DNA from: a virus
Taxonomy: Duplodnaviria; Caudoviricetes
Virus record (IMG/VR): IMGVR_UViG_3300033141_002284
Location: 1 to 58,011 of that record
Reading direction: 5' to 3' (one strand)
DNA: 58,011 bases
A program made the position numbers and the translations under genes. Positions 27,211 through 50,693 of this stretch are shown in pieces. The notes under the pieces are model-generated. The model saw nothing but the letters and a program-made list of their open reading frames with translations. It made no database searches and was not told where the DNA came from. How positions within the stretch are numbered: the stretch's first letter is position 1; each line of letters starts with the position of its first letter.

Positions 27211-27630
27211 AAAAGGGGGCAACCAGCTCATTTGATTCTGCTTTGCCACCTCCAATAATATTTCCTTCAATATTCTAAAAGACATATTATCTTCCACCCA
27301 TTCAACTGTTAATGCCTCATAATTATCATTTCTGTATTCAAACAGAAAGTTCAGAACCGCAGTTAATTCTTTAAAAACAATTTCCCCGCCTTCATCAATC
27401 AAAGATTGTAAGGTTATCTTGTCCCATTTGACATTACCTTTCCGATCAGTCGGCAGATTTAATTTTTCCTTTAATCCTTCAACTGTCTGGGTTATCAGTA
27501 TGACAAACTTTTTCGCTCTTCCGATTGCCATTTCGTTCATGTTTATTTTTTTCGATCCTACTGTAAAAATCGTCAGCGACTCTGATAATCTCTGGATCAG
27601 TTCTGTATTGTTTTTCAAATCCTTTTCCAT
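27175..27630 (-). CDS. Tail assembly chaperone (gpG-like)
   Basis: Upstream of TMP; ends in ...LPPFFQ containing slippery C CCT TTT TTT. Confidence 0.75.
   Translation of the reverse strand: MEKDLKNNTELIQRLSESLTIFTVGSKKINMNEMAIGRAKKFVILITQTVEGLKEKLNLPTDRKGNVKWDKITLQSLIDEGGEIVFKELTAVLNFLFEYRNDNYEALTVEWVEDNMSFRILKEILLEVAKQNQMSWLPPFFQSKFSEVLMK
27208..27219 (-). other. Programmed -1 ribosomal frameshift site
   Basis: CCC CCT TTT TTT (X XXY YYZ). Confidence 0.75.
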
Positions 27631-28618
27631 CTCTTTTTACAACCTCTCTAAAATCAGCTTTGGGGAATTCTGTTATTATTCCTTCGCTGCAATCAAACAA
27701 CTGCGGTCTGTCTATTTTATAAATGCTCATTAATGCAATTTTATATTCTATCTGCTCTTCCGTCGTCTGAATACCATTGTCAGCCATATGCAATGGTCTA
27801 TTTAATTTATCAATACAAACACATTCATTTTCTATCCATCTTTTTTTCCATAACCATCTTGGCTCAAACGGAAAACGCCACGGGATTTTGTATTCATTTG
27901 TTCTATTTATCCCCCAAGGATAACCGAAATCACAACCAACCATAAACAGAGGATCATAGCCCATAAAATGCGCAGTCTGAACCATATTATTAACAACACA
28001 GCCAGCATTTAAAATTCTTGCCGTAATATAAGGAAATAAGATCGGATTTATAAAACTGAAAAACTCCGATCCAAAAGCCTGTCCCTTTACATATTCTACC
28101 AATTCCTGCATAGTCCAGTTGCCCTCAATTCCCGTTGTTTCAACTTTCGGCACGTGCATCATTAAATAATATATTTTTGCCCATTTCCACCATTTAAGCA
28201 TTGTCGAATCAACCGCCGGATGCGTTAATAAAACCGAACCTTTCCAATTATAATTTTGCAAATAAAGTTTCGCGGCACCACCATCATAGGCGGCTATATA
28301 TTCCGGTTGCCTGTCATGATAAACAAAAGCCGACGCCATTGTTTCCGGCACAAAAAAAGGAAGCTTACAATCTTTTAAAATAGACAAATATTTAATCAAG
28401 CTTGGCCCTGCGCCTACAATTACCGCTGGCCCTTTATATTTTTGTTTAAAACTACTTAAATCATATTCTTTGCCAGATTCAAATTCTTTTTTGACCAAAT
28501 TGAAATTCGACGCAGTAGACCATGCCCACTTAGGTAACCACGCTGCTAATACGCCTCTATTTCTTTGTTCCTGAGTTTGTGTTATAAATTCACCCCGATT
28601 GTTTTCCGTTTTTACCAT
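27479..28618 (-). CDS. Maf / MAF_flag10 (DUF115, MptE-like) family protein, putative glycosyltransferase
   Basis: PAVIVGAGPSL, QPEYIAAYDG, AGCVVNNMVQTAHFMGYDPLFMVGCDFGY; TAATG-coupled to the tail tube gene. Confidence 0.78.
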   Translation of the reverse strand: MVKTENNRGEFITQTQEQRNRGVLAAWLPKWAWSTASNFNLVKKEFESGKEYDLSSFKQKYKGPAVIVGAGPSLIKYLSILKDCKLPFFVPETMASAFVYHDRQPEYIAAYDGGAAKLYLQNYNWKGSVLLTHPAVDSTMLKWWKWAKIYYLMMHVPKVETTGIEGNWTMQELVEYVKGQAFGSEFFSFINPILFPYITARILNAGCVVNNMVQTAHFMGYDPLFMVGCDFGYPWGINRTNEYKIPWRFPFEPRWLWKKRWIENECVCIDKLNRPLHMADNGIQTTEEQIEYKIALMSIYKIDRPQLFDCSEGIITEFPKADFREVVKRDGKGFEKQYRTDPEIIRVADDFYSRIEKNKHERNGNRKSEKVCHTDNPDS

Positions 28619-29391
28619 TAAGTCTCCAAGCTCCATTCAAATAATTGTTTCCCTGGATTTTTTGACAAATCACCTAACAGATGGAATGTCATGGGAATAC
28701 CCGAAAATTCTGCCGCCATAGAAATAGCAGCATCCGATGAACCTATATGCTTTGCCCTAAAGCCTTTGAACTGTAGTGCTTTGCCGCCATCAAGAATGTG
28801 TACTAATTTTAATTCGGCTTCAAAATCGGCAAGTTGGCCACCGCCCGACAATATAGAAACTGTAGATGTTTTATTATATTCGACAATAACTGTATCGCCA
28901 TCACCGATGGTGGTTCCTGTTATTCTTGCAATTGTTCCGCTTGCTGCCGTAGAAGTAAAATCTGTTCCTCTCACATAAGCAGTCGCAAAACCCGGACTCC
29001 AAACATTAATTGTGCCAGAAATATATCCAGCTCGATCTAGCGTGTTTGAAGCATATCCTGCTAAAGTTTGTTCTTCCCGATATCGTTGTATCGAGCTTGA
29101 TGTTGCACTGTAAGCCGTTGTCGATATGGTCCCGACTGCATCAAACCCTGTTGCAGCATCATATACATATCTCATGTTGGCAAGATCAAAATCGGCAATA
29201 ACAACATCTATCTCCATTACTTCTTTGGTTTTTCGTGATATAACATTCACGCCATGATCTTCTAATCCGGCCTGAACGGTTTCTTTTGAATAACGAAAAC
29301 TCGCCTGACTTTTCGGGCTTCCCATCCGGACATCATTCCAATAAATTTGAACGGGCCCTATGGGGATTTTCTTCGCTACTGTTGTACTCAT
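28618..29391 (-). CDS. Major tail (tube) protein
   Basis: KIPIGPVQIYW..V.MG, ...GIPMTFHLLGD..K; Ig-like insertion; position. Confidence 0.75.
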   Translation of the reverse strand: MSTTVAKKIPIGPVQIYWNDVRMGSPKSQASFRYSKETVQAGLEDHGVNVISRKTKEVMEIDVVIADFDLANMRYVYDAATGFDAVGTISTTAYSATSSSIQRYREEQTLAGYASNTLDRAGYISGTINVWSPGFATAYVRGTDFTSTAASGTIARITGTTIGDGDTVIVEYNKTSTVSILSGGGQLADFEAELKLVHILDGGKALQFKGFRAKHIGSSDAAISMAAEFSGIPMTFHLLGDLSKNPGKQLFEWSLET

Positions 29392-29798
29392 ATTCTTTCC
29401 CTCCGATAGAATACCTGGAAAATAATTGCTCTTCCAAAAGCATTCAAATCTTCATCGTATAATTCTTCGGTCATGGTATCTACTATAATCCGTATACCAT
29501 AACTGTCATTGTTTGGCATTTGATTCAATAACCGGATTATTCTTTCAGCTATCGTTTCATAGCTGGTATCCCGTGTCCATATTGTAACAGTCAAAGACAC
29601 TCTCATTATCCGACAATCAAAATCCTCTTGTGATATTACCACATTACCAAACCGATATATTACTTCTGGCAAATCTGGTTTCTCCGGCGGTTGGATATAA
29701 AAAGTTCTGTAGGGATCAGCAGCAGGATCACCAAGCAATCCTAAATAAGTCGAATCACCCGTTAATATATTATAAACCTGATCCTTTAAATCATTCAC
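29388..29798 (-). CDS. Tail terminator / completion protein
   Basis: VYNILTGD...LGLLG, P...P.VIY; position. Confidence 0.7.
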   Translation of the reverse strand: MNDLKDQVYNILTGDSTYLGLLGDPAADPYRTFYIQPPEKPDLPEVIYRFGNVVISQEDFDCRIMRVSLTVTIWTRDTSYETIAERIIRLLNQMPNNDSYGIRIIVDTMTEELYDEDLNAFGRAIIFQVFYRRERI

Positions 29799-30211
29799 CC
29801 AAACACCCTCGACAATTCATTTGCCATTATTCTAATGTTTTCTCCTTGCGTATCCTCCAGCCCAGGCACTAAAAAAGGATAAGCCCGTCTGTTCGGCCCT
29901 CCCAGTTCAACCAGAGCCCCATAATCCATCCCAACTCTGATTTCTATTTCAGCTCCATTTCTAAAAACCTTGACCTTGCTTCTATGAATCGAATTTATCA
30001 AATCCTGCGACCACACATAAAAATGTTTATGTGGATGCGCCTTCACTGTTTTCTTGTCCAGAGATTTTCCCCAAAGATGCTCCTGCTTCGTCTTGATATG
30101 ATTTATCGTATTTCCGGCTGCGTCTTCCAGTGCTCTTTTTATCGCCGGATTCGTCCAGTTGTCTACTCTCCGCAGGTTTTTTTGTAATTCTTCTAATCCC
30201 TGCAAGGCCAT
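29795..30211 (-). CDS. HK97 gp10-like neck protein
   Basis: GLEELQKNL, DYGALVELG..R.AYPFLVPGL. Confidence 0.8.
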   Translation of the reverse strand: MALQGLEELQKNLRRVDNWTNPAIKRALEDAAGNTINHIKTKQEHLWGKSLDKKTVKAHPHKHFYVWSQDLINSIHRSKVKVFRNGAEIEIRVGMDYGALVELGGPNRRAYPFLVPGLEDTQGENIRIMANELSRVFG

Positions 30212-30313
30212 ATAATTCCTCCAAAGTATATACCTGCCGCATATACCTGATTGTTTTTTCTCCTCTAGCCTCGGCTGCTCTGATATGTCCTATTGTTAAT
30301 TTTCCTGGCAGCA

Positions 30314-30670
30314 TTATCTATTCTCCACTTTCTTGGCATATATTTCTTTATGATCTTCGAATACATCAATCTGTAATACCTCATAATAATCGGTCGGTGC
30401 AGCATTTTTTCTAATTCGATGCATGGTTGATACGGTCGATGTCCACGGGAACATAATCAAATCGGTTGCTTCGGAAATAATTCCTTTACCTTCCCGATCC
30501 GATCTTCCCCGATATGGAAAAAACATCACGGTGCTCGATGATACCACCGTACTTGTACTTTCAACATGCGGCCTTGATTCGTAATCAATAGTAGCCGAAT
30601 ATACTGTTACCGCTACCGCTCCCTCGGGATCATCGCTAATAATATTGACTGTATCTTCCCTCCGAATCAT
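30314..30670 (-). CDS. Head closure / head-tail joining protein
   Basis: Position; YEVLQID..EDHKEIYAK. Confidence 0.6.
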   Translation of the reverse strand: MIRREDTVNIISDDPEGAVAVTVYSATIDYESRPHVESTSTVVSSSTVMFFPYRGRSDREGKGIISEATDLIMFPWTSTVSTMHRIRKNAAPTDYYEVLQIDVFEDHKEIYAKKVENR

Positions 30671-30927
30671 GCAATTGTCTCTCCGATATATTCGGATATA
30701 TCAACGCCAAATTCATCGACACCCAACGCAACATGCCGGATGTCTTCATACGGCTCTACCTCGGCAAGGGCCTGATATTGAGCCCTTGCCTTCAGTAAAG
30801 TATTTAAAATCTCGCTTTTATTAACCGATTTCTGGCCCAATTTATAAGATGCAATGTCATTAGGACTTGCTATAATAGTAGCAATTTTTGCATCAAGAGT
30901 AGCCAGCATATCAGTTACAGTACTCAT
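30667..30927 (-). CDS. Head-tail adaptor (gpW-like)
   Basis: SYKLGQKSVNK..IL..L; follows the capsid gene. Confidence 0.6.
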   Translation of the reverse strand: MSTVTDMLATLDAKIATIIASPNDIASYKLGQKSVNKSEILNTLLKARAQYQALAEVEPYEDIRHVALGVDEFGVDISEYIGETIA

Positions 30928-30937
30928 TTATAACCTC

Positions 30938-32083
30938 TTAACTCGCGCCGGTGGAGGCAAACACATAGCGATTTGTTATCGCTCCGCAGCCGCCCATGAA
31001 CCGGGCTTTAAAGCGAAAAAGAACATCTCTCTCGAATTCCTGATCATTCCCTTTCTTAGCCTGAAAAGTCCTAAGAGGAAATACTTCAGTATAAACAAAT
31101 TGTTTTTTTGGATCGCCATAATACCAATATTTAGCACCCTTCAGACTATCCACATACGGACTGTAAAGATGCTTAATTCCCATTTCTTGAGAATACACAT
31201 TGAAATTGCCCGCAGGCGCAGTCAATATAACATTCTGTTTCGATCTGGTAATTGTCCTTCCGACACCCATAAGGGCCATCGAAGTAAATAAAACTTTCGG
31301 TACTAATGCCAGTAAAGTTCCATTCTCATCCGTATAACTAGCCATAGCCGCAGTTGCTGCATCAAGATCGGTTTCATCGGCAAGCGTATTGGTTCCCAAG
31401 TTGTTTAGCGTATCGCTGGTATAGGGATCAGCTGATGCTGAATTATATAATGTAGTTGCTGTTCCGCCCGGCCGCCATGAGGCATATTCACCAGTAGAAA
31501 CATATTCCGTAACTGCACTTATGATGATTTCCTCTTGTTTCGCTTTTGCCATTTCCCCAACACGCCTTGCTCTGTTTACAATCTGGTGTGTCTTGTCGAA
31601 TTTTACCATTTCTTCAGACACCGAAATAATCCGACCCCATTTTCTGTTTTTAACTTTATGATATTTCTCAGTAACCGAACCTTCCTGATAAGGCATCAGT
31701 TCCGGCACTTCTTGCATGGTATCATCGTCAGCAAAACCGACAATAACATCATCTTTTTGAGTAGATGGTATTTTTGTAACCAACTGAAAACCTATGCCAT
31801 ATTCCAGATCATAGGCTTCCTGCACCACTTTGTTAATTAGTGCTCCAGTTATTTTCGGGAAAGTCGAGCTATCCACGGCCTCTTTAAATTCTGCCTCGGT
31901 TACCGCTCTGTCTAAGATGTTTCTATCTCTTGCAAAATCCGGTCTTCCCATTGCTTCCCACAGTCCCTTGAGTGAAAAATTCTCGGCGTTGAGTTTCCCC
32001 TCATGGATCATGTTAAGCATATTGACAGCGAACCTTTTTTCTCCGTCGCTCTCGTATAATTCTTTAAGTCTTGTATAATTCAT
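30938..32083 (-). CDS. Major capsid protein (Mu gpT-like)
   Basis: FPKITGALINKVVQEAY, KWGRIISVSEEMVKFD, LVPKVL. Confidence 0.88.
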   Translation of the reverse strand: MNYTRLKELYESDGEKRFAVNMLNMIHEGKLNAENFSLKGLWEAMGRPDFARDRNILDRAVTEAEFKEAVDSSTFPKITGALINKVVQEAYDLEYGIGFQLVTKIPSTQKDDVIVGFADDDTMQEVPELMPYQEGSVTEKYHKVKNRKWGRIISVSEEMVKFDKTHQIVNRARRVGEMAKAKQEEIIISAVTEYVSTGEYASWRPGGTATTLYNSASADPYTSDTLNNLGTNTLADETDLDAATAAMASYTDENGTLLALVPKVLFTSMALMGVGRTITRSKQNVILTAPAGNFNVYSQEMGIKHLYSPYVDSLKGAKYWYYGDPKKQFVYTEVFPLRTFQAKKGNDQEFERDVLFRFKARFMGGCGAITNRYVFASTGAS

Positions 32084-32093
32084 TAGATAATCC

Positions 32094-32549
32094 TTATAAC
32101 GCCAATATTTCAGCCTGGAATTTTCCAGGTAAGAACTGCACTAGAACCTCTGTTCCTGCTGTTCCCAATTCCTGGATGCTTACCGCCACCGCATTAGTCG
32201 CTGAAGAAGAAATGGTAGTCATTTCTCCCATCGAATCAAGCGTCTGATTTCCGGTAATTTTAAAATATGTGCCAACAGTATATGTTGAACTATCGTCAAC
32301 GGTCATTTCAAAAACCGTACCATGCCCGATTTCTGCCATTCTTACACTCTGGCCACTCGCATCACTTGTCGGGGATGCACTCATAGCAATCCCAACCAGA
32401 TTTTTTGAATCAGCAGATGTAGTACATGGAGTTACTGTTCCACCAGCAACCCATTTCAGCATATCGCCCTGTTCAACATCTACAGTTGCAGATTTATCAA
32501 CCCACTTCAAAACAAGCGGGCCCCATCTGTATCGCATTTTGTTACTCAT
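32094..32549 (-). CDS. Capsid decoration/cement protein
   Basis: VEQGDML...LVGIAM; between scaffold and capsid genes. Confidence 0.7.
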   Translation of the reverse strand: MSNKMRYRWGPLVLKWVDKSATVDVEQGDMLKWVAGGTVTPCTTSADSKNLVGIAMSASPTSDASGQSVRMAEIGHGTVFEMTVDDSSTYTVGTYFKITGNQTLDSMGEMTTISSSATNAVAVSIQELGTAGTEVLVQFLPGKFQAEILAL

Positions 32550-33945: not shown

Positions 33946-34392
33946 TTACCATAATTTATGCAGATGCCTGTTTTTATCTATCTCTATCCGGTCTCCATAA
34001 CCAACTAATCTGCTATTTGGTTCATTTATGATTTCCCGCCGTTCTTCACCATAATTTTCTTTTATGTAAGCAATTACAATTTTCAAATATTTATGGTTTT
34101 CTTTTCTTCTTAATTCTTCCGCATCTTTGCGTGCATTTCTTGCTTTTAATAAAGCCGCCTTAATCTGTTCTTCTCCAACTAATCTTTTTTCACTAATCCT
34201 GACCTTTGTGTCTGAATCAAGATTCCCTGCATCATCCATGGCCTTTTTCCAACCGCCAAACTTTAATGCAAGATTAGCTCCCAGTTCATTCATCATCACG
34301 CCACCAGATAGAGATAACCCTTGTTCAATATGATTAACATATTTTTGTTCAACTTTAACCCTACCCATTTCTTTCGTAGTGGTTTTTCCCAT
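33946..34392 (-). CDS. Hypothetical protein
   Basis: 148-aa ORF with AGGAG SD. Confidence 0.6.
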   Translation of the reverse strand: MGKTTTKEMGRVKVEQKYVNHIEQGLSLSGGVMMNELGANLALKFGGWKKAMDDAGNLDSDTKVRISEKRLVGEEQIKAALLKARNARKDAEELRRKENHKYLKIVIAYIKENYGEERREIINEPNSRLVGYGDRIEIDKNRHLHKLW

Positions 34393-34440
34393 TATAAAAA
34401 CTCCTTACTATATATAGTCTTTCTATTTATTATATTTTTG

Positions 34441-37725: not shown

Positions 37726-37748
37726 AATTATAAACCCTCTTTACGATT
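37726..37748. repeat. Dispersed palindrome copy (degenerate)
   Basis: aattataaa ccctc tttacgatt. Confidence 0.5.
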
Positions 37749-37797
37749 TAGCATCTTTCACTTCTATCTTTTAATAAAATAGCCAAGTAAACTATTT

Positions 37798-38115: not shown

Positions 38116-38183
38116 ATCTATCTCCTATCTATTTTCTGTCTGTCTGTTTCTCTGCCTGCTTAGCTATTATAAATAAATTTATT

Positions 38184-38818: not shown

Positions 38819-38821
38819 ATT

Positions 38822-40590: not shown

Positions 40591-41083
40591 ATCCTAACTC
40601 TTTAGCCTTTTTGGCGGCATTTAACATTTCATCTATCGGCGAGGCTTTCTTGACTGTCATATCAATATCCTGTTTTATAGTCTCCCTCTTGCCATATATT
40701 TTGGGCTCCATCCTCTCAAGGAACCATGCGGCAGCAAACCAGTTGGTTTTTGCCGCCTCTTCGATAAGCAATACATTTCTTAAAATAGCCGCATGCCTAC
40801 CCCTTTTTACAATATCCAGGAAGTTTAAAAGCAGTTCTGCTTCATGTTTCTTTTTTAATGTCGCAAATTTAACTTCCCTTTTTTCCGATAGATCACTAGC
40901 TAAATTTTCAGCTTTGGTTTTCCAGTAATACCAGGTACTTCGGGGGATTCCTAATGTACCATATATTGTTTTATCGTAAAGTCCGACTTTACAATATTTG
41001 TCTATTTCTTTTAATAGAGTCTCGGTTAAGCATACTTTACGAGTTTTATATTTGATTGTTTTATTCTTTCCATTTTTTACCAT
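40556..41083 (-). CDS. terS: Terminase small subunit
   Basis: HTH LGIPRSTWYYW, NWFAAAWFLER..P..YG; directly upstream of TerL. Confidence 0.8.
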   Translation of the reverse strand: MVKNGKNKTIKYKTRKVCLTETLLKEIDKYCKVGLYDKTIYGTLGIPRSTWYYWKTKAENLASDLSEKREVKFATLKKKHEAELLLNFLDIVKRGRHAAILRNVLLIEEAAKTNWFAAAWFLERMEPKIYGKRETIKQDIDMTVKKASPIDEMLNAAKKAKELGYVPKDIIASNN

Positions 41084-42329
41084 TTAATTTAATATTAATC
41101 TCCCTTTTGTTTTGTTTACACCAATCTTTATATCGCTGAACTGTTACATTGCAATAGTGCGGCTCGATCTCCATGCCATAACATATCCGGTTGGTTTTCT
41201 CACAGGCTATGAGAGTGGAGCCTGAACCGAGGAAAGGATCAAGGATTGTTTTATAGGAATTAAATCGTCTGAAAATATTCTCAAAAAGGCCGACTGGTTT
41301 TTGAGTTGGATGCACTCTCTTCAACAGTTCATCAGTTCTATTTCCTTCACGGGAGAGGCCATTCCAGAGATATTTAAAAACCTTAATCCCGCCCTTTTGA
41401 AAAGAAGTCCAGGCCATTTCCGCTTCTGAGAAATTACCGGTCATTTCCTTATCCCAGATAAACCAACATCGGGAGATAGGAAGAAAATCGGTATAATAAT
41501 TCCCGCCCCATAGAACTATGTTTTTATATTTCAGATTTTTACAGATTTGATAAAAACGTTTTGTCGTTTCTGTAGAATCATCTCCTCTTATTTCGTAATA
41601 TTCTTTTGAATCAACTATATTCACACCACCAATCTTGCCCTTGAATTTTGTTTCACCACCTCCGCCTGTCTTTTTTGTCTTTACATTTACAGCATTAATC
41701 CCATAAGGCGGATCAGTGAATACCATATCCGCCTTCTGCCTCGCCATTAGCTTTTCAATCTGCTTTGCATCGGTGCTATCTCCACATAATACCCGATGTT
41801 TCCCAAGTTCCCATAAATCACCCATTTTGGTTATTGTTTTAACTTTTTCCGGTATTTCATCGTCATCAACGGTTTCTTCTTCTGGAAACACAATGTCAAC
41901 ATTAGGTATTTCTACTGTATTTAATAAAGAATCTACATCTAAATCGGCTTCATCAATAAAATCCATTAATCCTGCCTCGGTTATTATTCCGTATTGGCTG
42001 GCGATTCCCAACAGTTTTTCTTTTGCTTCTTTTTTATTGATTGCTTTTATATAATCAATTGGCAATTTTGCCGGTATTTTATATCCTTCCTTCTGCAATT
42101 CCAATAATGCCTTGACTCGACTATGTCCATCAAGAATATATGCCTTACTTTTATCAGATTTTTTCCAAATAAATATCGGTGCGCTGAAGTTGTTTTTGAT
42201 AATATTATTCTTTAGCTTTTGCATATTCTCAGGAGTTATCTTTTTTAGATCGCCCTGAAAGTTTATCAATTTATCAATCGGCAATAAATCAGCTCCTTTA
42301 CAAGCTGTCTTGATTTCCTTTACCATCAC
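41061..42329 (-). CDS. ParB-domain / DNA N6-N4 methyltransferase fusion
   Basis: ILDGHSR, GDLWELGKHRVLCGDS, FTDPPYG, HPTQKPV, LDPFLGSGSTLIA. Confidence 0.92.
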   Translation of the reverse strand: MMVKEIKTACKGADLLPIDKLINFQGDLKKITPENMQKLKNNIIKNNFSAPIFIWKKSDKSKAYILDGHSRVKALLELQKEGYKIPAKLPIDYIKAINKKEAKEKLLGIASQYGIITEAGLMDFIDEADLDVDSLLNTVEIPNVDIVFPEEETVDDDEIPEKVKTITKMGDLWELGKHRVLCGDSTDAKQIEKLMARQKADMVFTDPPYGINAVNVKTKKTGGGGETKFKGKIGGVNIVDSKEYYEIRGDDSTETTKRFYQICKNLKYKNIVLWGGNYYTDFLPISRCWFIWDKEMTGNFSEAEMAWTSFQKGGIKVFKYLWNGLSREGNRTDELLKRVHPTQKPVGLFENIFRRFNSYKTILDPFLGSGSTLIACEKTNRICYGMEIEPHYCNVTVQRYKDWCKQNKREINIKLNGKKWKE

Positions 42330-42500
42330 CTCGCCCTTGGTCTTAACGGTATTACTATCGGTATTCCTAATATTTGCAAATCTATAACAAATCCGTTTAT
42401 ATGAAATCTAAATATACGGAATTTATATCCAATCTCTTTCCAGCCAATCTCTAATAAATTAATTGTAAAGTGCCCTTTACGAATAATTATATCGAATATA

Positions 42501-43058: not shown

Positions 43059-43060
43059 GA

Positions 43061-43438
43061 TTAATCCTTTAAAAGTTCCGGATTTTCATAAAAATTACCA
43101 ATAACAATACCATAAAAATCATAAAACATGGTTTCCAAAAAACTTCCTTTTGTTGGCCCTGGTCGATATAGGGCAAAATAGGGCGGACTCCATTCAACTA
43201 TATAAATAGTTCCATTAACATCTTTAACAATATCTTTTTCATATATCTCTTTGCTATTCTTGTCCTCGAGGCCGGTATAGAATGAGATTTCCAGATGATT
43301 CATGCCCCGCATATAATGATCATATCCACATTCAGTAAAACACCATGCCTCTCCGTCTTGGTCTATGTAAATATCATCATAATCCGTTTCCCAGCGCTTT
43401 TGTTTATCATTCCATACCCTAAACTTACTCTCTTTCAT
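43061..43438 (-). CDS. YopX family protein
   Basis: KFRVW, YTGLEDKNSKEIYEKDIV, VIGNFYENPELL. Confidence 0.9.
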   Translation of the reverse strand: MKESKFRVWNDKQKRWETDYDDIYIDQDGEAWCFTECGYDHYMRGMNHLEISFYTGLEDKNSKEIYEKDIVKDVNGTIYIVEWSPPYFALYRPGPTKGSFLETMFYDFYGIVIGNFYENPELLKD

Positions 43439-43703
43439 TCCTTTGCTCTCCGTATGCTTTTATTCTATGAGCTATCAAGTGATCTATTGTTGCATCAAGT
43501 CTCCGCATAGTCATTTCAGAATAAAATAAAAACATTAATTCTTCGCTTTCTGTTATTTTGTCAGGATGCTCAATTCCTAAAGATAATACAATATTATTAT
43601 AACCGGCATCTTTTAAAAAAATCATTATACTTTCTACTTTTATTTGTGCAGCTTTTTTAGTATTTTCTGGAACAAATCGATTTGTTAATAATTCAATTTT
43701 CAT
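43425..43703 (-). CDS. Hypothetical protein
   Basis: 92-aa ORF tiled between neighbours. Confidence 0.55.
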   Translation of the reverse strand: MKIELLTNRFVPENTKKAAQIKVESIMIFLKDAGYNNIVLSLGIEHPDKITESEELMFLFYSEMTMRRLDATIDHLIAHRIKAYGEQRNERE

Positions 43704-44846
43704 TTATTCCTTCGCTTTATATCCTGGATTCTCAAATTCAAAAGAACCGTATACTAAACCATAATCATCAGATTGCTTTAATTCTCTTCCTTTATGTGGC
43801 TGTACAGAATCCCATTGTGTACTCACATATAATTTAGTTGACGTTTTTTTTATACATGGTAGATAACCATATTCAATATCATCATTTAATTCTGGCAGAC
43901 GACGTCCTGTTGTATAATTCTCAATATAGCCATATCCAGTATGCATCGGCCATAATCTATTTAACATAGAAGGACAATAAATTGAATTTTGATTTATTAT
44001 TAGATCATCAACCAAATCTTCCTTTATCCATTTTCGCCAATCTAATTTCGTATTACCTATTGGCGGCCCCAATATCTCACCAGTAGGAATACCAATCGCT
44101 AAAGATTTATTTGCTTTATTAAGCTCTGGTCTTATTTCTTTGATAAATTTGGTTAAATATGAGCCAAGCAGACGGCGCCAACTAACCAAATCAAAATCGT
44201 CAATATAGATATCTTTACCGTAAAGCTCATAATATTCTTTTCTTACTGGCTCATTAAATCCAAACTGATCTGCAAATTCGGCCGGTTTTGATTGCGATCT
44301 TAAACAGATAAACAATCCATCAAAATCCGTATTTTCTATTGAGCTTAAAAAATATTCTCTGAAATATTTGCGGACTTCCGGATAAGATAAACTTAAAACA
44401 CCCCACTGTCTTTTCGTTCCGCTTCTATCTACCCTGGCATATTCAGGATGTTCATAAGAGAATCTACTCATACGAGTATTATATTGTGCTGTATCAGCAG
44501 AATGATAACTGACTTTCCGTTCTTTTAACGGCGGCAATGGCCAACCTTCGTCAAACAGGTGGACATACAAATAGATTTTCATTCCCACCCTATGAGCTAT
44601 TGCCGGTATTTCATGGTCTTCCCAATCTATAGGAATGGCTTTTTTCTTTTTACGGATTATATTATAGATTGAATTAAAATATTTGTTTTCCGCTTTTCTT
44701 GTTCCCCGCCAAAATATTTTATCAGCATTCAGTCTTTCTTTCCAAATTGCCATTCTCTGCTCAATAGCATCTAGGGTAATTAATTGTCCATCTCCATTTC
44801 CTCCATAAGTGCGATGATCCCCCCAAGATACATTTACTATATTCAT
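43704..44846 (-). CDS. Glycoside-hydrolase-like TIM-barrel protein (GHL10/DUF187-like)
   Basis: AHRVGMKIYLY, LSLSYPEVRKYF, DFDGLFI, LDWRKWIKEDLVD. Confidence 0.65.
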   Translation of the reverse strand: MNIVNVSWGDHRTYGGNGDGQLITLDAIEQRMAIWKERLNADKIFWRGTRKAENKYFNSIYNIIRKKKKAIPIDWEDHEIPAIAHRVGMKIYLYVHLFDEGWPLPPLKERKVSYHSADTAQYNTRMSRFSYEHPEYARVDRSGTKRQWGVLSLSYPEVRKYFREYFLSSIENTDFDGLFICLRSQSKPAEFADQFGFNEPVRKEYYELYGKDIYIDDFDLVSWRRLLGSYLTKFIKEIRPELNKANKSLAIGIPTGEILGPPIGNTKLDWRKWIKEDLVDDLIINQNSIYCPSMLNRLWPMHTGYGYIENYTTGRRLPELNDDIEYGYLPCIKKTSTKLYVSTQWDSVQPHKGRELKQSDDYGLVYGSFEFENPGYKAKE

Positions 44847-45556
44847 ATTTCAATTATCTCTTTGTAAGCTCTTTCAATATCGGAATATCTCTCTGGGAAA
44901 AACCCTAAGTAATCGATTACCATATTCATTATTGCCATTTCGAGCGGATAATCAATGTCAATCTTAATTGCTGTTTTTCCCGGCGGCATAATATCACTAC
45001 AATCAACCAATTTGATTAATGGATCACCTTCCTTAAGCACATAGCAACACCAATATTGTTCTTCCATTTTTGCTGGATCGGAACATTTTTTCATAGCCGC
45101 TATTTGTGATTCCATATATATTTTTTTTATACCGCCAGTATTATGCCCGCTTATTGGTGATCCCCAAGGACTATAACTACCATAAGTCCAATAGTCCGGT
45201 TCTCTCCTCATTGCATCAATAAGTCTTTGTGCTATTTCCAAATCAAAAAAAGGGCTATCTCCCGAAACTGTTAAAGCATGGGTAATGCCATATTCATTCC
45301 AAGTTTCCAAATGTCTACTTGCCAAATTGTGAACATCACCCCGGTAACATTCGACTTGATTATCATCACAAATATTTTGAATGACATCATCTGAAGTTAA
45401 ATAAGAGGTTGACACAACTATCCCATCAAGATTTTTAAGATTTTTGCACTTTACAATTATTTGTTCCAACATCGGTTTTCCGCCCAACATGGAAATAACC
45501 TTATTCGGAAATCTTTCTGAAGAACAACGTGCTGTTATTAATGCAAATAATTTCAT
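44843..45556 (-). CDS. SpsF/NeuA-like cytidylyltransferase
   Basis: ITARCSSERFPNKV...LGGKPML, VVSTS...DD, YRG, VSGDSPF.D, IDIDYP. Confidence 0.85.
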   Translation of the reverse strand: MKLFALITARCSSERFPNKVISMLGGKPMLEQIIVKCKNLKNLDGIVVSTSYLTSDDVIQNICDDNQVECYRGDVHNLASRHLETWNEYGITHALTVSGDSPFFDLEIAQRLIDAMRREPDYWTYGSYSPWGSPISGHNTGGIKKIYMESQIAAMKKCSDPAKMEEQYWCCYVLKEGDPLIKLVDCSDIMPPGKTAIKIDIDYPLEMAIMNMVIDYLGFFPERYSDIERAYKEIIEI

Positions 45557-46230
45557 AATTTTTCCATCTCCATAAATGCTTTTTCTATTTCCTCATATTT
45601 TTCTGGATAATGGCCGATATATTCAATTACTTTATTTAATATTGCAACATGCAAAGGATAAGCGATATTCAAATCTATTAAGTATTTATTTCGTAAATTA
45701 GGTTCCTTCCAATCATGCAGAATAAAACCATCTTTTTTGGATTGTTTGGATTGCCACCATAGTTCTTGATCGGTTCCAGTCTTTTTATATTCTTCTATTA
45801 TTTCCCTAGAAGGTATAGAATGCATAATGCCCTCCGAATGAACATAGGCATATCTATAATATGCATACCCTGGTTTTTTTCTTATTTCTCGAATCACTTC
45901 GTTCATTATTTTTATCTCAAATAATGGCCAATTAGCAGGCATCGGAATAAAATAATCAAGATCATATTTCACAACAGCTTCGTAATATCTTAATCCTCGA
46001 TCATCCGGCGGGCCCGTAATATATTGAATTCCATATCGCCCCGCAAGATTCATCAACCATTTGTCTTCTGGATAATAAGTAGTTGATAAAATTATTTCAT
46101 CAAGGCCCTTTAGTTTTACCAATCTTTCAATCACTCTTTCAATAATTGGTACTCCTCCCAGTTTGGCTTTAATCTTATCCGGCCATCGACCATAATTAGA
46201 CCTTGCTAATACTACAGCTCCTATTCTCAT
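45553..46230 (-). CDS. Degenerate SpsF-like cytidylyltransferase paralog
   Basis: LARSNYGRWPDKI...LGGVPII, ILSTT; ANWP and LNIAYP replace GDSP and DIDYP. Confidence 0.75.
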   Translation of the reverse strand: MRIGAVVLARSNYGRWPDKIKAKLGGVPIIERVIERLVKLKGLDEIILSTTYYPEDKWLMNLAGRYGIQYITGPPDDRGLRYYEAVVKYDLDYFIPMPANWPLFEIKIMNEVIREIRKKPGYAYYRYAYVHSEGIMHSIPSREIIEEYKKTGTDQELWWQSKQSKKDGFILHDWKEPNLRNKYLIDLNIAYPLHVAILNKVIEYIGHYPEKYEEIEKAFMEMEKL

Positions 46231-46472
46231 TTCTTTCTCCCCTCTGCAAAATCTTTTAATATTTTCCGCACTTGCTTTTTATAGTTTAAATATTCTTTTA
46301 AAACACCTCCACCAGTTATTATCAGTTTTATTAAATAAAATGGTATTGCCATAATTAAAACTGCCAAAAAACCTATTGCTATCGCAAACATCCCCACAAA
46401 TAAAAACGGCGATAATATTATAAAGGCTATTATCTCTTCTGTTTTAGATAATTTTTTATCTTCATTATCCAT
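46227..46472 (-). CDS. Small membrane protein
   Basis: Long hydrophobic stretch; C-terminus paralogous to 46465-46728. Confidence 0.6.
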   Translation of the reverse strand: MDNEDKKLSKTEEIIAFIILSPFLFVGMFAIAIGFLAVLIMAIPFYLIKLIITGGGVLKEYLNYKKQVRKILKDFAEGRKK

Positions 46473-46728
46473 TGTTTATTCCCTTGTTTTTTTCAAAATC
46501 TTTTAATATTTTGTGTCTCTGTTTTCTAAAATTTATATATTCTATTATAAAATCAACTCCGTCTTTTGTTAATATTATAATCGCTTTTGGTATCGTTATT
46601 ATTAAACACACAAAAATCATTGTTATCGCAATAATTAGAATAAATGGCAGTGCTATCGGCATCGGCACTAACAATATCCAAGCGACTAATGGGTAAGCTA
46701 ATGATATTTTATTTTTTTTATCTGTCAT
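46465..46728 (-). CDS. Small membrane protein
   Basis: Start re-set to MTDKKNK; EYINFRKQRHKILKDFE. Confidence 0.6.
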   Translation of the reverse strand: MTDKKNKISLAYPLVAWILLVPMPIALPFILIIAITMIFVCLIITIPKAIIILTKDGVDFIIEYINFRKQRHKILKDFEKNKGINNG

Positions 46729-46730
46729 AA

Positions 46731-47558
46731 TTACCCCTTTGTTACTCCCGAAAAAATATTCTTTAAAAAATGCTTTTGGAACATTGCAAATATTACTAAT
46801 GGCGGTAAAAAAGCGAATGTAGCACAAGCATTTTTCAATCCATAATGCTCAAGCCCGGATTTAAAAAGTATCTCTGCACTGGTTACTATTTTCAATATGC
46901 CGACCGGTAAAGTATATATATTTTCTGATTGTGCTATTATTAGCTGCCACATTAAGGCATTCCATCCGCCTATAAATCCGATTAAAAACATAGCCGCTGC
47001 CGGAGCCATCGATAAAGGTATTACTATTTTTATCAATTTTGTTATTTCTCCGGCTCCATCGATCTCTGCAATATCTAATAATTCATTCGGAAATGATTTT
47101 AAAAATTGCCGATAAAAAAATATATAAACTGGTGAAGCTAATCCTGGTATTACCATTCCTGCTAAAGAATCATATAGTCCCATTTTTTTAATCATTAGAA
47201 ATAACGGTATCATTTTACTCTGCATTGGCACCATTAAGGAAGCTAGAAATAACATAAAAATAGTTTCTTTGTAAGGTATTTGTTTTTTTGCGAAAGCATA
47301 TCCACTTAATATACTAAATGATGTTGCTCCGAAAGCCCCGGCAGCCGATACAATAAAACTATTAAAAGTCCATCTTAAAACCGGCCATTTAAACAAAGTT
47401 ATATAGTTATTGATTGTCGGCTTTCTTGGTAGTAATGTCGGCGGCATAGCAACGGCGCCCAATGCTGATTTAAAAGAGCCGCTTATCATCCATATGACTG
47501 GAAATAAAAGAATTAGTGCTAATAATATTATTATTGTTTGATTAATTGTTTTTAACAT
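46731..47558 (-). CDS. Carbohydrate ABC transporter permease (MalG-type)
   Basis: FNSFIVS, GYAFAK, EAA-loop ELLDIAEIDGAG, WN.LMWQ, FQKHF..GVTKG. Confidence 0.93.
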   Translation of the reverse strand: MLKTINQTIIILLALILLFPVIWMISGSFKSALGAVAMPPTLLPRKPTINNYITLFKWPVLRWTFNSFIVSAAGAFGATSFSILSGYAFAKKQIPYKETIFMLFLASLMVPMQSKMIPLFLMIKKMGLYDSLAGMVIPGLASPVYIFFYRQFLKSFPNELLDIAEIDGAGEITKLIKIVIPLSMAPAAAMFLIGFIGGWNALMWQLIIAQSENIYTLPVGILKIVTSAEILFKSGLEHYGLKNACATFAFLPPLVIFAMFQKHFLKNIFSGVTKG

Positions 47559-47745
47559 CTATTTTTCTTCTACTGTGAAACTGTTTGGATGCTAAAATCA
47601 TCATATATGCCATAGGATAAAAACCGACTATTTTATCAAATTTATCTTTTATTCTTTTCTTATCCCCATCTGAACTAAAATAATAATATGACAATAACGT
47701 AAACACACATCCCGCCCCTAATATAATACCTGGTATTATTCCCAT
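47542..47745 (-). CDS. Small membrane protein inserted between the permeases
   Basis: GGAGG SD; N-terminal TM. Confidence 0.5.
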   Translation of the reverse strand: MGIIPGIILGAGCVFTLLSYYYFSSDGDKKRIKDKFDKIVGFYPMAYMMILASKQFHSRRKIDVKNN

Positions 47746-47862
47746 AATGTGCCTCCCGTAAAAATTGTTTCTTCTTTTTCTTGCTCAAGAAAGTTTTCAT
47801 ATTCCCTTTGATTCATTTTCTTTAAATATTTTATACCGCAATTAGGACAATATAAATCATAT

Positions 47863-48705
47863 TTATTTCCTATCAATCAATATTTTTTTCTGTATTACGG
47901 TTAATGCGATAATTATTGTAAATACCACCAGGCTTTCTGCCGCTCCCAGTCCATATTTGCCGCTTTGAAAAGCCCGTACAAAAATCTGATATACCAATGT
48001 AGTTGTCGCATAATATGGCCCGCCGCCTGTCAATACATATGGTATCTCCCAGATCATCATAACTCCGATTGTTTGCATGATTAAAATAAATGCTATTATC
48101 GGCAGCATTAACGGCATTGTAATATAGAGAGCTTTTTGTCTATCGCTACAACCATCTAATTCAGCGGCATCATATAGTTGTGTATCGATAGTCGATAAAG
48201 CCGACATATATAAAATAACATTTAATCCCATCCCTGAAGTTATCATAACAATGCAAATTGAAAAAAAAGCCGCTGGCATAGTTCCTGTCCAGATCACTGG
48301 TTCAATCCCGATTAATCCTATTATATAATTTAGCAAGCCATGCTGTGGATTAAAAATCCAGCTCCAAGTAATTGAAATAATCATCCCCGCCGATATTAGC
48401 GGAACATAATAGGCAAATCGTATAAATGATTGCATTTTTCTTGACATATCATGCGCTATCAATGAAACAAAAAACGAAACAAACACCAGTAAGGGAACAC
48501 TGAAAGCTACAATGCTTATAGTGGTTTTCATAGACTTCCAAAATATGTCATCGTTTATCAAATAGATGAAATTATCAAATCCTATGAATCGACTCACTCT
48601 GGCATTAGCTTTAAAAAAAGCAAGAGCAACACCTTGGATTGTAGGGATTGCTGTGAAGAGAATAAATATGAAGAGGGCTGGCGAAATCAACGCCAACCCT
48701 ACCAT
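47863..48705 (-). CDS. Carbohydrate ABC transporter permease (MalF-type)
   Basis: FIGFDNF, WIFNPQHGLLN, LYDAAELDG, LTGGGP, YGLGAA. Confidence 0.93.
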   Translation of the reverse strand: MVGLALISPALFIFILFTAIPTIQGVALAFFKANARVSRFIGFDNFIYLINDDIFWKSMKTTISIVAFSVPLLVFVSFFVSLIAHDMSRKMQSFIRFAYYVPLISAGMIISITWSWIFNPQHGLLNYIIGLIGIEPVIWTGTMPAAFFSICIVMITSGMGLNVILYMSALSTIDTQLYDAAELDGCSDRQKALYITMPLMLPIIAFILIMQTIGVMMIWEIPYVLTGGGPYYATTTLVYQIFVRAFQSGKYGLGAAESLVVFTIIIALTVIQKKILIDRK

Positions 48706-48721
48706 ATAGTTTTTTATTTTT

Positions 48722-50053
48722 TTATTCTGAAAGAAGCTTATTTGCACGACGGTCAAATTCCGCTGCCGCTTCGGCAGGTGTAATCTCATTTATTAACATG
48801 CCCTGGAGTACAGCCAACCAAATTTGGCGCAGCTCATTATATACCGGAAACCCTATGCCCATGTCGTAAATACCCCGATCTTTTATAATCTGTGACATCT
48901 GTTTCATCGCCATGCCAATAGTTCCTGAACTTGTCGGCATTCCGGCAGTTTTTAAAGGACTGAATTTTGAATAGACTTTTTGTAAAATTGTCTGTACTTC
49001 GGCCCCGGTTATATATTGTAAAAACTTTAATGCCTTTTCTAACTGAACAGGATCGCCATTATCAATAACCATAGCCAGATCTGGCCCGAAACATGGTGCT
49101 ACTCCATCAACTCCTTCAACGTGCGGATATTCCATTAATACACATTCGAATTCCGCCTCTACAACTCCGTCTTTTACGGCATATTTCCCTACCTCTATAC
49201 CAGCAGGAACGTAACCCCGCATTCCTAATTTGCCGGAATTGAACAACATAGCCATATCGCCATCATACAGTCCAGAGGCTCCATAAGGTACATAACCATT
49301 TTCATGCAGATAATGAATATATTCCATTCCTTTTATGCCTTCGGGAGTATTAAGAATCGCCTTGCCGTTTTCATAAAGATTAGCGCCAAATCCACCCAGC
49401 ATATTCAATACCCAATAATCACCGCCGCATTCTTTTGCAATAATATAGTAACCATAGTACTCATCGCCCAAGGCAGTAATAGCCTTAACTGCTCGATCAA
49501 ATTCCGCTACTGTCCATGATCTATCGGGATCATCGTCGACCGGTAATACATCCGCAACCCCCGCCTGTTCAAATAAATTTCTATTAGCCATTAAACAAAC
49601 AGCCCATCCAGGCATCGGCAAAGCATACAATTTACCATCTCGCTCAAATTGTGATAATGCCGACTTTTTAAATTGATCAATAAACTCTTTCGGCAATGCC
49701 TCATAAAGATTAACCCCAAAATCAGCATTGGCAAATTTATTGACTCGCCCACCATAACTCCAGATAACATCGGAAGGTTCACCGCTCGCTAAATCCATAT
49801 CAAGACTTTTCGTAGTATTGTCTATAGCATCTGAATATTTCCGTAATTCTATCTTAATTCCTGTTTCCTCTTCAAATTTAGGAATAATATTGTCTTTCCA
49901 TAGATACCCTGTAAAATCACGATTTGGATATTGCTCTTCGGAAACATCCGATACAATAGCGAAAATCAGCGGTTTTTCGACTTCCGGTTGACCTGTGGCA
50001 AATACCGAAAAAACCAACATAAATACCATTAAAACTAAAACAATTCTTTTCAT
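48722..50053 (-). CDS. Carbohydrate ABC transporter solute-binding protein (CUT1)
   Basis: Signal peptide; FEEETGIKIE, ASGEPSDV, DGKLYALP, NRNLFEQAG, FNSGKLGM. Confidence 0.92.
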   Translation of the reverse strand: MKRIVLVLMVFMLVFSVFATGQPEVEKPLIFAIVSDVSEEQYPNRDFTGYLWKDNIIPKFEEETGIKIELRKYSDAIDNTTKSLDMDLASGEPSDVIWSYGGRVNKFANADFGVNLYEALPKEFIDQFKKSALSQFERDGKLYALPMPGWAVCLMANRNLFEQAGVADVLPVDDDPDRSWTVAEFDRAVKAITALGDEYYGYYIIAKECGGDYWVLNMLGGFGANLYENGKAILNTPEGIKGMEYIHYLHENGYVPYGASGLYDGDMAMLFNSGKLGMRGYVPAGIEVGKYAVKDGVVEAEFECVLMEYPHVEGVDGVAPCFGPDLAMVIDNGDPVQLEKALKFLQYITGAEVQTILQKVYSKFSPLKTAGMPTSSGTIGMAMKQMSQIIKDRGIYDMGIGFPVYNELRQIWLAVLQGMLINEITPAEAAAEFDRRANKLLSE

Positions 50054-50077
50054 TCTTTTACCTCTTCTCTTTAATTT

Positions 50078-50100
50078 AATTGTAAACTCACTTTACAAAT
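50078..50100. repeat. Dispersed palindrome copy
   Basis: aattgtaaa ctcac tttacaaat. Confidence 0.7.
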
Positions 50101-50153
50101 ATTCCTGACAAATATTAATCTGCCAGGAATACATTTTTTCCACTACCTATTTG

Positions 50154-50693
50154 CTAATAATTAACTAACACTTTTGCATAGACACCGCCATTCAACGGTT
50201 CGGACGGTGCCACCTCAGCAATCTCGGCTCCGCAATCTGTCAACAAATAGCCTACGGTAAACTCAAACGGATCCGGTTTATAAGTTGCGGAGAATTCCGC
50301 ACCCTGCCAATCTTCCTGTTCGGGATCAAGTAAAGTACACGTAGTAACATTAAAGCCGAAATTCTCATAGATAAAATCTACCCAACTTTTATTTTTTCTC
50401 AGCTCTAAATCTTTCTCTCCATATATTTTGGAACCGAATACGAATCCTGCTACTGAATACTTAGCAGCAAAATCATATTCCCAAAATTTCTCATCGGCTT
50501 CCAGATCAATGTTATATTCACCGTTTGCATCAAACCGCAAAGGCCCGACTTCCAGGTAAGCTCCCTGGTTAAACCAAACTTTTTGATACTCGTCTCCCTG
50601 CATCCCAGATGTGGAAGTACTACCCCCAACATCAACTGCATAAATACCTACTGCTAATAGCAGTATCATCAAAAACAGTAAAACCCTCTTCAT
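50154..50693 (-). CDS. Putative outer-membrane beta-barrel (porin-like) protein
   Basis: Signal peptide MKRVLLFL...IYA; alternating beta strands; C-terminal GVYAKVLVNY beta-signal. Confidence 0.6.
   Translation of the reverse strand: MKRVLLFLMILLLAVGIYAVDVGGSTSTSGMQGDEYQKVWFNQGAYLEVGPLRFDANGEYNIDLEADEKFWEYDFAAKYSVAGFVFGSKIYGEKDLELRKNKSWVDFIYENFGFNVTTCTLLDPEQEDWQGAEFSATYKPDPFEFTVGYLLTDCGAEIAEVAPSEPLNGGVYAKVLVNY

Follow-up and report, generated by a model that had tools for sequence, protein, structure and literature searches.

A Candidate Phage-Encoded Route for Sugar Import, CMP Activation and Maf-Like Virion Glycosylation in an Uncultured Siphovirus-Type Phage

Two Loci in a Complete Phage Genome

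The IMG/VR virus record IMGVR_UViG_3300033141_002284 is a complete phage genome (58,011 bp, rated 100% complete) that carries direct terminal repeats, and this whole stretch of DNA is referred to as the window. We analysed two of its loci, a short Maf-like glycosyltransferase gene in the tail module and a cassette of genes for a sugar importer and two cytidylyltransferases downstream of rsr, which may together provide a route for the import of a sugar, its activation with cytidine monophosphate (CMP), and its transfer onto a virion protein. The long open reading frames (ORFs) of the genome were all located on the minus strand, and the GC content was 32–42%. Annotation with Pfam and PHROGs revealed a siphovirus-type late region (terminase, lambda-type portal, capsid, neck proteins, tail tube, tape measure, and distal tail proteins) and an early region containing ERF, a single-stranded DNA-binding protein, a replisome organiser, and methylases. 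No tRNA was found in the genome. A tblastn search of 50,697 GenBank phage records with the major capsid protein and the Maf-like protein returned no match, and the phage therefore belongs to an uncultured lineage.

The cassette (43704-50693) formed one co-directional string of largely overlapping genes. A first-pass annotation, made from the sequence alone, had described there a porin-like protein, a CUT1 solute-binding protein, two permeases, two cytidylyltransferases, and a barrel resembling glycoside hydrolases (GH), and all of these genes were found in place on the minus strand (Table 1).

Table 1. Coordinates of the tail-module and cassette features in the window
Position	Strand	Feature	Evidence or remark
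23072-24199		Distal tail protein, 375 aa	Holds the motif YTSTSST
24196-26901		Tape measure gene	PF10145, phrog_991
26912..27630	-	Two small ORFs at the tail-assembly-chaperone position	Judged from position only; follow the Maf-like gene and precede the tape measure
27479..28618	-	Short Maf-like (DUF115/MptE-like) putative CMP-sugar-dependent glycosyltransferase, 379 aa	PF01973, central Maf domain only
28618..29391	-	Tail tube protein (C-terminal part Ig-like; Ser/Thr patches conserved); proposed acceptor	Weak phrog_807 and NCBIfam tail_tube_6XGR matches
43704..44846	-	Cytoplasmic GH-like (beta/alpha)8 barrel, 380 aa; last operon gene	GHL10 (PF02638) 24.9 bits, below the cut-off of 27.9
44843..45556	-	Cytidylyltransferase 1 (CT1, CTP_transf_3)	PF02348 68.5 bits (cut-off 22.6), residues 5-124
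45553..46230	-	Cytidylyltransferase 2 (CT2, CTP_transf_3)	PF02348 38.6 bits (cut-off 22.6), full-length profile; tandem paralog of CT1
46227..46827	-	Two paralogous small membrane proteins in the operon	33% identical over 90 aa, 4.8e-7; no family matches
46731..47558	-	ABC permease 2 (UgpE/MalG-like)	BPD_transp_1 3.4e-13; NCBIfam UgpE 1.7e-37, below its cut-off
47542-47745		Third small membrane ORF	
47863..48789	-	ABC permease 1 (UgpA/MalF-like)	BPD_transp_1; NCBIfam UgpA 1.9e-27, far below its cut-off
48722..50053	-	Periplasmic CUT1-type solute-binding protein	SBP_bac_1 6.5e-21, SBP_bac_8 1.1e-14; signal peptide, no lipobox Cys
50154..50693	-	Secreted beta-rich protein, probably a small outer-membrane barrel/channel; first cassette gene after rsr	Signal peptide
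50734..52332	-	Rsr/Ro60 homolog	TROVE and vWA_Ro60; NCBIfam Rsr 8e-49, below its cut-off

The Maf-Like Protein

The Maf-like protein matched PF01973 (MptE-like/DUF115) with 55.2 bits (cut-off 34.6; E 9.4e-15). A database search yielded 54 homologs, of which all but 3 contained PF01973 and none was characterised among the matches listed. When a profile of 30 homologs was compared with the Protein Data Bank (PDB), the Maf of M. magneticum (5mu5) was retrieved at 4.2e-7, as against 0.18 for the archaeal MptE kinase. Structural prediction with AlphaFold (AF2) gave a model with a predicted local distance difference test score (pLDDT) of 89, and Foldseek matched this model to 5mu5 at 1.3e-8 and to the MptE kinase at 1e-4. 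Structural alignment with VIA-align showed a Z score of 20.4 to 5mu5 (root mean square deviation 3.1, 235 residues, 17% identity), compared with 14.0 over 197 residues to MptE HPPK (8sd5), followed by a long series of sialyltransferases that use CMP-sialic acid, CstII and ST8Sia among them (Z 8–9.5). Thus, 5mu5 was the best match by profile and by structure, in agreement with the assignment to the Maf/DUF115 family in the first-pass annotation.

The matched part of the 632-residue 5mu5 chain comprised residues 238-514, and the rest of the phage model consisted of one N-terminal and one C-terminal helix. Maf enzymes are described as consisting of three domains, an N-terminal Rossmann-like, a central, and a C-terminal helical one (PMC11339370); this layout was absent from the 379-aa phage protein. 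The same source states that the central domain (pfam01973) resembles Cst-II and that both CMP-Neu5Ac and CMP-Kdo can be used by Maf enzymes; it calls the role of the N- and C-terminal domains unclear and notes a weak likeness of the C-terminal domain to flagellin and flagellin chaperones (PMC11339370). The predicted structure indicates that the phage protein corresponds to the central catalytic domain of Maf devoid of its flanking domains.

The Tail Module and the Proposed Acceptor

The stop codon of the tail-tube gene and the ATG of the Maf-like gene overlapped as TAATG, and the Maf-like gene lay between the tail tube and the tail chaperone genes, as had been noted at first pass. A search of viral contigs with the single Maf-like sequence found nothing, and an alignment-based search with the Maf-like family detected 38 loci with a relative. 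At 26 of these 38 loci (L002-L027), the Maf-like gene was flanked by a homolog of the tail tube on one side and by homologs of the window's two chaperone-position ORFs on the other; in 25 of the 26, the end of the tail-tube ORF lay at most approximately 65 nt from the Maf match. Because it is kept in the tail module of these related loci, the Maf-like gene is a fixed part of this module in the window's lineage and not a recent insertion; the earlier description of the gene as "inserted" was thus correct as to its location and not as to an insertion event. In other phages, Maf-like genes adjoined the capsid gene or came behind the portal gene.

The most likely acceptor is the tail tube, as judged from the position and coupling of the two genes. 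Ser and Thr together accounted for 19.5% of the tail-tube residues versus 10.7% over all 91 proteins of the phage, and Ser/Thr patches around YSATSS, TDFTST, and EYNxSAT were kept across 21 aligned tail-tube homologs. Both motifs that had been quoted as signs of Ser/Thr-rich tail proteins were present, the tail tube containing TISTTAYSATSSS and the distal tail protein YTSTSST. A single-sequence search with the tail tube reached only 4 close loci. Complex prediction for the Maf-like protein and the tail tube, run without controls, gave a score of 0.00, which counts neither way.

The Putative Import Cassette

The gene set of a CUT1 importer was found in the cassette, namely an SBP_bac_1/8 binding protein with a signal peptide and two BPD_transp_1 permeases; the cognate ATPase was absent, as no match to the ATP-binding cassette (ABC) ATPase family (PF00005) was obtained in the complete phage genome at E<=0.1. 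The importer would therefore have to borrow an ATPase of the host. The solved structures nearest to the binding protein were generic sugar-binding proteins at 1e-8 or weaker.

The gene directly upstream of that for the binding protein probably encodes a small outer-membrane barrel or channel. A signal peptide and an invariant C-terminal Tyr were shared by 13 aligned homologs, and Porin_4 matched two of the 13 family members and not the window's own protein. The neighbours of this protein in a language-model atlas included a viral "porin" cluster and KdgM porins of the acidic-sugar type, which we regard only as a lead. Comparison of the family profile with the PDB retrieved no membrane barrel and only weak matches to soluble retinol-binding barrels, and a phmmer search with the protein against the ORFs of loci L002-L054 gave no match. 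A hidden Markov model (HMM) of the family located homologs in L030, L163, and L136, in each case as the gene immediately preceding that for the binding protein; in L034, this slot was filled by a different secreted protein ending in Phe. The original term "porin-like" is thus backed by the signal peptide, the terminal Tyr, the Porin_4 matches of two homologs, and the language-model neighbours, and by nothing beyond these.

The barrel encoded by the last operon gene had no signal peptide. Its AF2 model (pLDDT 76, five disordered stretches) was matched by Foldseek to Cwp19 (GHL10; 5oq3) at 3e-13, the C-terminal domain of PgaB at 1e-8, and, at rank 13, GH156 exosialidase at 8e-8; a sequence search of the PDB gave nothing meaningful. 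These data support a (beta/alpha)8 (triosephosphate isomerase, TIM) barrel fold, as proposed at first pass, and not membership in the GHL10 family, the profile score being below the cut-off. More than 720 homologs with approximately 50% identity, all of them unnamed, were found in Chloroflexota, Acidobacteriota, Desulfobacterota, and other groups. Among 78 bacterial loci encoding the TIM barrel, NeuB adjoined in 7/78 and a CTP_transf_3 gene in 7/78, and the recurring set consisted of HAD, TIM-barrel, NeuB, SDR, and cytidylyltransferase genes. The barrel may trim an imported glycoside or modify the sugar, which is a guess.

Clusters of TIM-barrel, NeuB+SAF, and CTP_transf_3 genes were also observed in bacterial metagenome-assembled genomes (MAGs) at L073:7477-12255, L112:7267-12236, and L064:6924-11378. 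The two Desulfobacterales loci among these three additionally encoded a HAD phosphatase and an SDR, and the Chloroflexota locus had an aldehyde dehydrogenase and a transketolase instead.

The Cytidylyltransferases and the Nature of the Sugar

The two cytidylyltransferases of the cassette were 29% identical to each other. CT1 matched known families over its N-terminal nucleotide-binding half only, and CT2 aligned over its full length, weakly. NCBIfam models of the KdsB type matched CT1 at 1.8e-13. The best PDB match of CT1 was 6oew, an uncharacterised "cytidylyltransferase" (4.2e-10), with KdsB structures at approximately 1e-3. The best scores against equivalog models (KdsB TIGR00466, PseF TIGR03584, and others) were 50.4 bits for PRK13368 (cut-off 255), 30.9 for kdsB (cut-off 155), and 27.5 for PseF (cut-off 206). 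The kinship with CMP-Neu5Ac and CMP-Kdo synthetases suggested at first pass was therefore borne out at the level of the family, with PF02348 above its cut-off and the KdsB type as the best match, and not at the level of an equivalog. The homologs of CT1 numbered 16, one of which had been automatically named Kdo8N cytidylyltransferase. The cytidylyltransferases of the window's lineage formed their own clade, apart from the cassette-type enzymes and from those of de novo type.

To our knowledge, all characterised CTP_transf_3 members act on 2-keto-3-deoxy acid sugars, for example Kdo and sialic, pseudaminic, and legionaminic acids. Because of the known substrates of CTP_transf_3 enzymes and of the Maf/sialyltransferase fold, the imported sugar is most likely of the 2-keto-3-deoxy acid (ulosonic) type that is activated as a CMP-sugar. 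The first-pass annotation had argued that the lack of a synthase (NeuB/PseI) fits scavenging; in line with this, NeuB was found neither in the window nor in any of the 33 importer-bearing records described below.

Linkage of Importer, Cytidylyltransferase, and Maf-Like Genes

The two loci, separated in the window, were joined in other phages. At five loci (L029, L030, L033, L034, and L035), which differ from the window in portal, terminase, or capsid families, genes for the binding protein, two permeases, CTP_transf_3, and one or two Maf-like proteins were contiguous. At L031:110-2173 (+), upstream of terminase, portal, and capsid genes, a 687-aa fusion protein was encoded with CTP_transf_3 at its N-terminus and the MptE-like domain at its C-terminus.

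In a reverse test, a search with a profile of eight permeases yielded 33 viral records; 8 of them overlapped with the 38 Maf-bearing ones. Whole-record Pfam annotation detected CTP_transf_3 (PF02348) in 32/33 and the MptE-like domain (PF01973) in 30/33 of these importer records, counts that do not represent independent events. The four misses (G062; G039, G040, and G056) were fragments rated 8-24% complete, and the cytidylyltransferase match of G056 touched the contig end. Both a cytidylyltransferase and a Maf-like gene were present in 29 records, and according to the match coordinates the two lay on one strand at a distance of 0.4-2 kb in 26 of these. The exceptions (G004, G008, and G009) belonged to the window's lineage, with the Maf-like gene 16-18 kb off in the tail module, as in the window. 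An HMM of the binding protein found a homolog in 27/33 importer loci. No protein encoded between the permease and cytidylyltransferase genes of the other cassettes was conserved across phages.

Neither NeuB nor an ABC ATPase above the Pfam cut-off was found in any of the 33 importer records, which include two complete genomes. Among the 38 Maf-bearing records, NeuB was present in 7, permeases in 8, and both in none, a pattern of mutual exclusion that is expected if import replaces synthesis of the sugar. The NeuB-bearing phages additionally encoded PseB-like dehydratases, aminotransferases, acetyltransferases, and a cytidylyltransferase of their own.

A quick tree of the Maf-like proteins separated a tail-module clade (23 rows; Shimodaira–Hasegawa-like approximate likelihood ratio test (SH-aLRT) 93) from a clade of cassette-type and fusion proteins (26 rows; SH-aLRT 99). 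Within the tail-module clade, G015 and G021 fell into a subclade (98) apart from that of the window, G004, G008, G009, and G014. The latter five, the records of their subclade in which the sequence reaches beyond the terminase gene, all had a cytidylyltransferase, and the first four had permeases. Taken together, the gene neighbourhoods in unrelated phages, the fusion protein, and the exclusion of importer and NeuB provide good support for a functional coupling of importer, cytidylyltransferase, and Maf-like enzyme as predicted from sequence, and uphold the earlier proposal that a single pathway unites the Maf-like gene with the distant cluster.

The Proposed Route

In the route that we propose, the barrel-like protein, the CUT1 binding protein, and the two permeases would import a sugar from outside into the infected diderm cell, powered by a borrowed ABC ATPase of the host. 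One or both CTP_transf_3 enzymes would then convert the sugar into its CMP form, and the cytoplasmic GH-like barrel may trim or otherwise process the imported compound. Finally, the Maf-like enzyme, which would be made with the tail tube late in infection, would transfer the sugar to Ser/Thr residues of a virion protein, most likely the tail tube. We consider it reasonably probable, with moderate confidence, that the system serves the import of an ulosonic-type sugar, its CMP activation, and the O-glycosylation of a virion protein, of which we infer the chemistry and the acceptor.

A broader proposal, which we put forward tentatively, is that a "scavenge and decorate" system is widespread in tailed phages of diderm bacteria and combines an envelope-spanning uptake apparatus of their own (outer-membrane channel, binding protein, and permeases, with a hijacked host ATPase), CMP activation, a stripped-down Maf, and O-glycosylation of the virion. 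Here, a free acidic keto-sugar that the phages do not make themselves would be captured, sister phages would use NeuB-based de novo synthesis, and a sialylation-like coating of the virion would be a common phage trait fed by interchangeable supply modules.

Several observations weigh against the proposed route. No equivalog model was reached by the cytidylyltransferases (approximately 50 bits versus cut-offs of 155-281), so that the substrate class is extrapolated, and the binding protein resembled generic sugar binders only. High Ser/Thr content is not specific to an acceptor and is common in phage surface proteins, which also tempers the earlier remark on the Ser/Thr-rich tail proteins. Approximately 69 of the 78 bacterial TIM-barrel homologs stood in unrelated contexts, and phmmer found no TIM-barrel homolog among the ORFs of the other phage loci (L002-L054). 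The permease profile had been derived from phages with a Maf-like gene, and many of the records that it retrieved were related fragments. The cytidylyltransferase and Maf-like clades of the window differ from those of the contiguous cassettes, and only the importer genes are shared, with 22-35% identity. Lastly, G015 (complete, 61.6 kb, terminal repeats) and G021 (74% complete) carried the Maf-like gene in the tail module without a cytidylyltransferase, permease, or NeuB.

The transferase is therefore not dependent on a supply encoded by the phage. The first-pass annotation had named occurrence of the Maf-like gene independently of the cluster, together with unmodified virion proteins, as a sign against its hypothesis; such independence was seen in these two relatives. 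As read from the sequences, the supply module appears exchangeable and dispensable and not an obligatory partner of the Maf-like gene, and the window's version appears to combine a shared importer family with cytidylyltransferase and Maf clades of its own.

Alternative Explanations

The same chemistry might be directed at a host-surface acceptor, such as flagellin, pilin, an S-layer protein, or lipopolysaccharide, thereby masking receptors and causing superinfection exclusion or preventing re-adsorption of the progeny to the dying cell. The characterised Maf enzymes modify flagellin, and in 26 contiguous cassettes the Maf-like gene adjoins the importer upstream of terminase/portal, outside the structural genes. 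In the window's lineage, by contrast, the gene is coupled to the tail tube and kept so in 26 loci, which implies late, stoichiometric co-expression with virion proteins, and in NeuB-type phages the Maf-like genes are neighbours of the capsid gene or follow that for the portal. The phage protein moreover lacks the N- and C-terminal Maf domains, and the absence of an integrase or repressor among the 91 ORFs gives no indication of lysogenic conversion. No flagellin gene was found in the phage genome. We regard a host-surface acceptor as unlikely.

It is also improbable that the PF01973 protein is an MptE-like (diphospho)kinase or another small-molecule enzyme rather than a glycosyltransferase, producing with the cytidylyltransferase a cytidine-linked metabolite, for example for DNA or nucleotide modification, as a cofactor, or as a signal. 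Fusion or adjacency with the cytidylyltransferase would suit two consecutive small-molecule steps, and the phage and its relatives are rich in DNA-modification genes (methylases, PAPS-reductase-like genes, and Vut_1 transporters). The Pfam family takes its name from the archaeal HPPK, which was the second-best structure and the best PDB match of the single sequence (0.0037), and both the kinase and Maf align at the G-x-G-P-S motif. The phage protein was nevertheless closer to Maf by profile as well as by structure, and the NeuB-type nonulosonate pathways that co-occur in other phages are the classic context of Maf. A location inside tail and capsid modules would be hard to explain for a metabolite enzyme.

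Very improbable, finally, is a lack of relation between the two loci, with the cassette as an auxiliary module for nutrient uptake or the host envelope and the Maf-like enzyme using a host-made CMP-sugar: the 16 kb between them in the window, the distinct clades of the window's cytidylyltransferase and Maf-like protein, and the retention of the Maf-like gene without a cassette in G015 and G021 agree with it, and the near-constant presence of both partners in importer records, the cytidylyltransferase (5/5) and permeases (4/5) in the subclade of the window, the way in which importer and NeuB exclude each other, and the lack of a catabolic role for a cytidylyltransferase argue against it.

Comparison with Known Systems

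The proposed O-glycosylation of a virion protein most closely resembles that of flagellin by Maf glycosyltransferases (M. magneticum 5mu5, C. botulinum CbMaf, Campylobacter, and Aeromonas). Shared features are the PF01973 catalytic domain and its fold, the genomic partnership with an activating CTP_transf_3 enzyme, and, presumably in the phage, the O-linkage of a CMP-activated acid sugar to Ser/Thr of a filament-forming structural protein. Unlike the 632-residue 5mu5 chain, the 379-aa phage enzyme has no N- and C-terminal domains; its gene adjoins that of the tail tube and no flagellin gene, and its donor would be imported instead of derived from a NeuB/PseI/LegI pathway.

Bacteria that scavenge sialic acid take it up, activate it with NeuA, and transfer it to a surface glycan, and CUT1-type SatABC transporters share a separately encoded ATPase. 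Common to these systems and the phage route are the uptake, CTP-dependent activation, and display of a ready-made acid sugar and a CUT1 importer without its own ATPase; the phage route differs in being virus-borne, in its presumed protein acceptor, and in a binding protein without specific similarity to sialic-acid binders. Phage auxiliary transport genes are exemplified by the PstS phosphate-binding proteins of cyanophages, which are likewise periplasmic binding proteins that plug into host ABC machinery; the phage analysed here encodes both permeases together with a binding protein and a channel-like protein, and these appear wired to glycosylation, not to nutrients.

Virion glycosylation is cited for mycobacteriophages in PMC12582341 (with reference to Freeman et al. 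2023, Cell Host Microbe), and the window's route would share with them the phage-encoded sugar modification of a phage's own virion proteins. In general, mycobacteriophages reportedly use ordinary glycosyltransferases and host nucleotide sugars to modify the C-termini of capsid and tail-tube proteins, and are not known to involve a Maf-type enzyme, CMP-sugar activation, or an importer. A search of article full texts, supplements excluded, found no phage-encoded Maf, no nonulosonate-type virion modification, and no phage cassette of importer and cytidylyltransferase; the literature found covers bacterial Maf enzymes and phages that bind or alter host nonulosonic acids. Within the literature searched, this suggests that a phage route of import, CMP activation, and Maf-type transfer has not been described before.

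If the route operates as proposed, phages would forage environmental sugars during infection through a transporter of their own that is plugged into a host ATPase. Virion glycosylation, experimentally shown so far for mycobacteriophages only, would then extend to CMP-activated acid sugars and Maf-type enzymes and to many uncultured phage lineages. The swap of importer and NeuB modules would represent a natural experiment on the purpose of the coat, be it stability, avoidance of decoy adsorption, or escape from recognition. In addition, the short Maf enzymes and divergent cytidylyltransferases could serve as compact tools for glyco-engineering, and the conserved bacterial TIM-barrel family would gain its first functional context.

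Other Genes in Related Phages and in the Window

Further genes were observed near the terminase and cassette in the window's relatives. A sodium:solute symporter (SSF, 513 aa; L041:7285-8826 (-)) was encoded between terminase and cassette in G008, and Vut_1 (YhhQ-type) transporters occupied the corresponding interval in G004 and G014 (L040:10350-11009 (-) and L043:13589-14212 (-)). PAPS-reductase-like and ParB_N genes accompanied the transporter in L041, and ParB_N alone in L040. In G025, a member of the importer-less subclade of the lineage, a short NeuB-family ORF (207 aa; L168:96-719 (+)) was located directly upstream of the portal gene. G015 encoded four radical-SAM proteins (L048:2242-6570 and L049:13697-14947), one of them with a SPASM domain; one of these genes lay just upstream of terminase, which is the slot of the sugar cassette in the window. 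A 60-kb fragment of a large phage, G027 (rated 26% complete; L028:8856-16179 and L044:4227-10871), contained genes for a tubulin/FtsZ-like protein, a Maf-like protein, GT2, UDP-glucose dehydrogenase, a methyltransferase, a radical-SAM protein, a PseB-like dehydratase, NeuB+SAF, a cytidylyltransferase, and an ATP-grasp ligase. One Maf-like homolog was named from a Candidatus Cloacimonetes MAG, the sole hint at a host.

In the window, the Rsr/Ro60 gene heads the cassette operon, directly upstream and co-directional, and is context only for the sugar pathway; an Rfam scan of the whole window at gathering scores matched no family, including no Y RNA beside rsr. Two YopX-domain genes were located at 43061-43438 and 54474-54920 (-), and more YopX genes were found in or next to the L029 and L033 sugar cassettes. 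A DNA methylase of 422 aa, ParB-like in its N-terminal part, was encoded at 41061-42329 (-), a second N6/N4 methylase at 1333-2088, and a DUF5131 (radical-SAM-like) protein at 6372-7103 (-). A 131-aa protein at 2251-2646 (-) matched Pfam Tad4, a type I Thoeris inhibitor, at 5.8e-8 (33.5 bits; cut-off 25), and is likely the product of an anti-defence gene.

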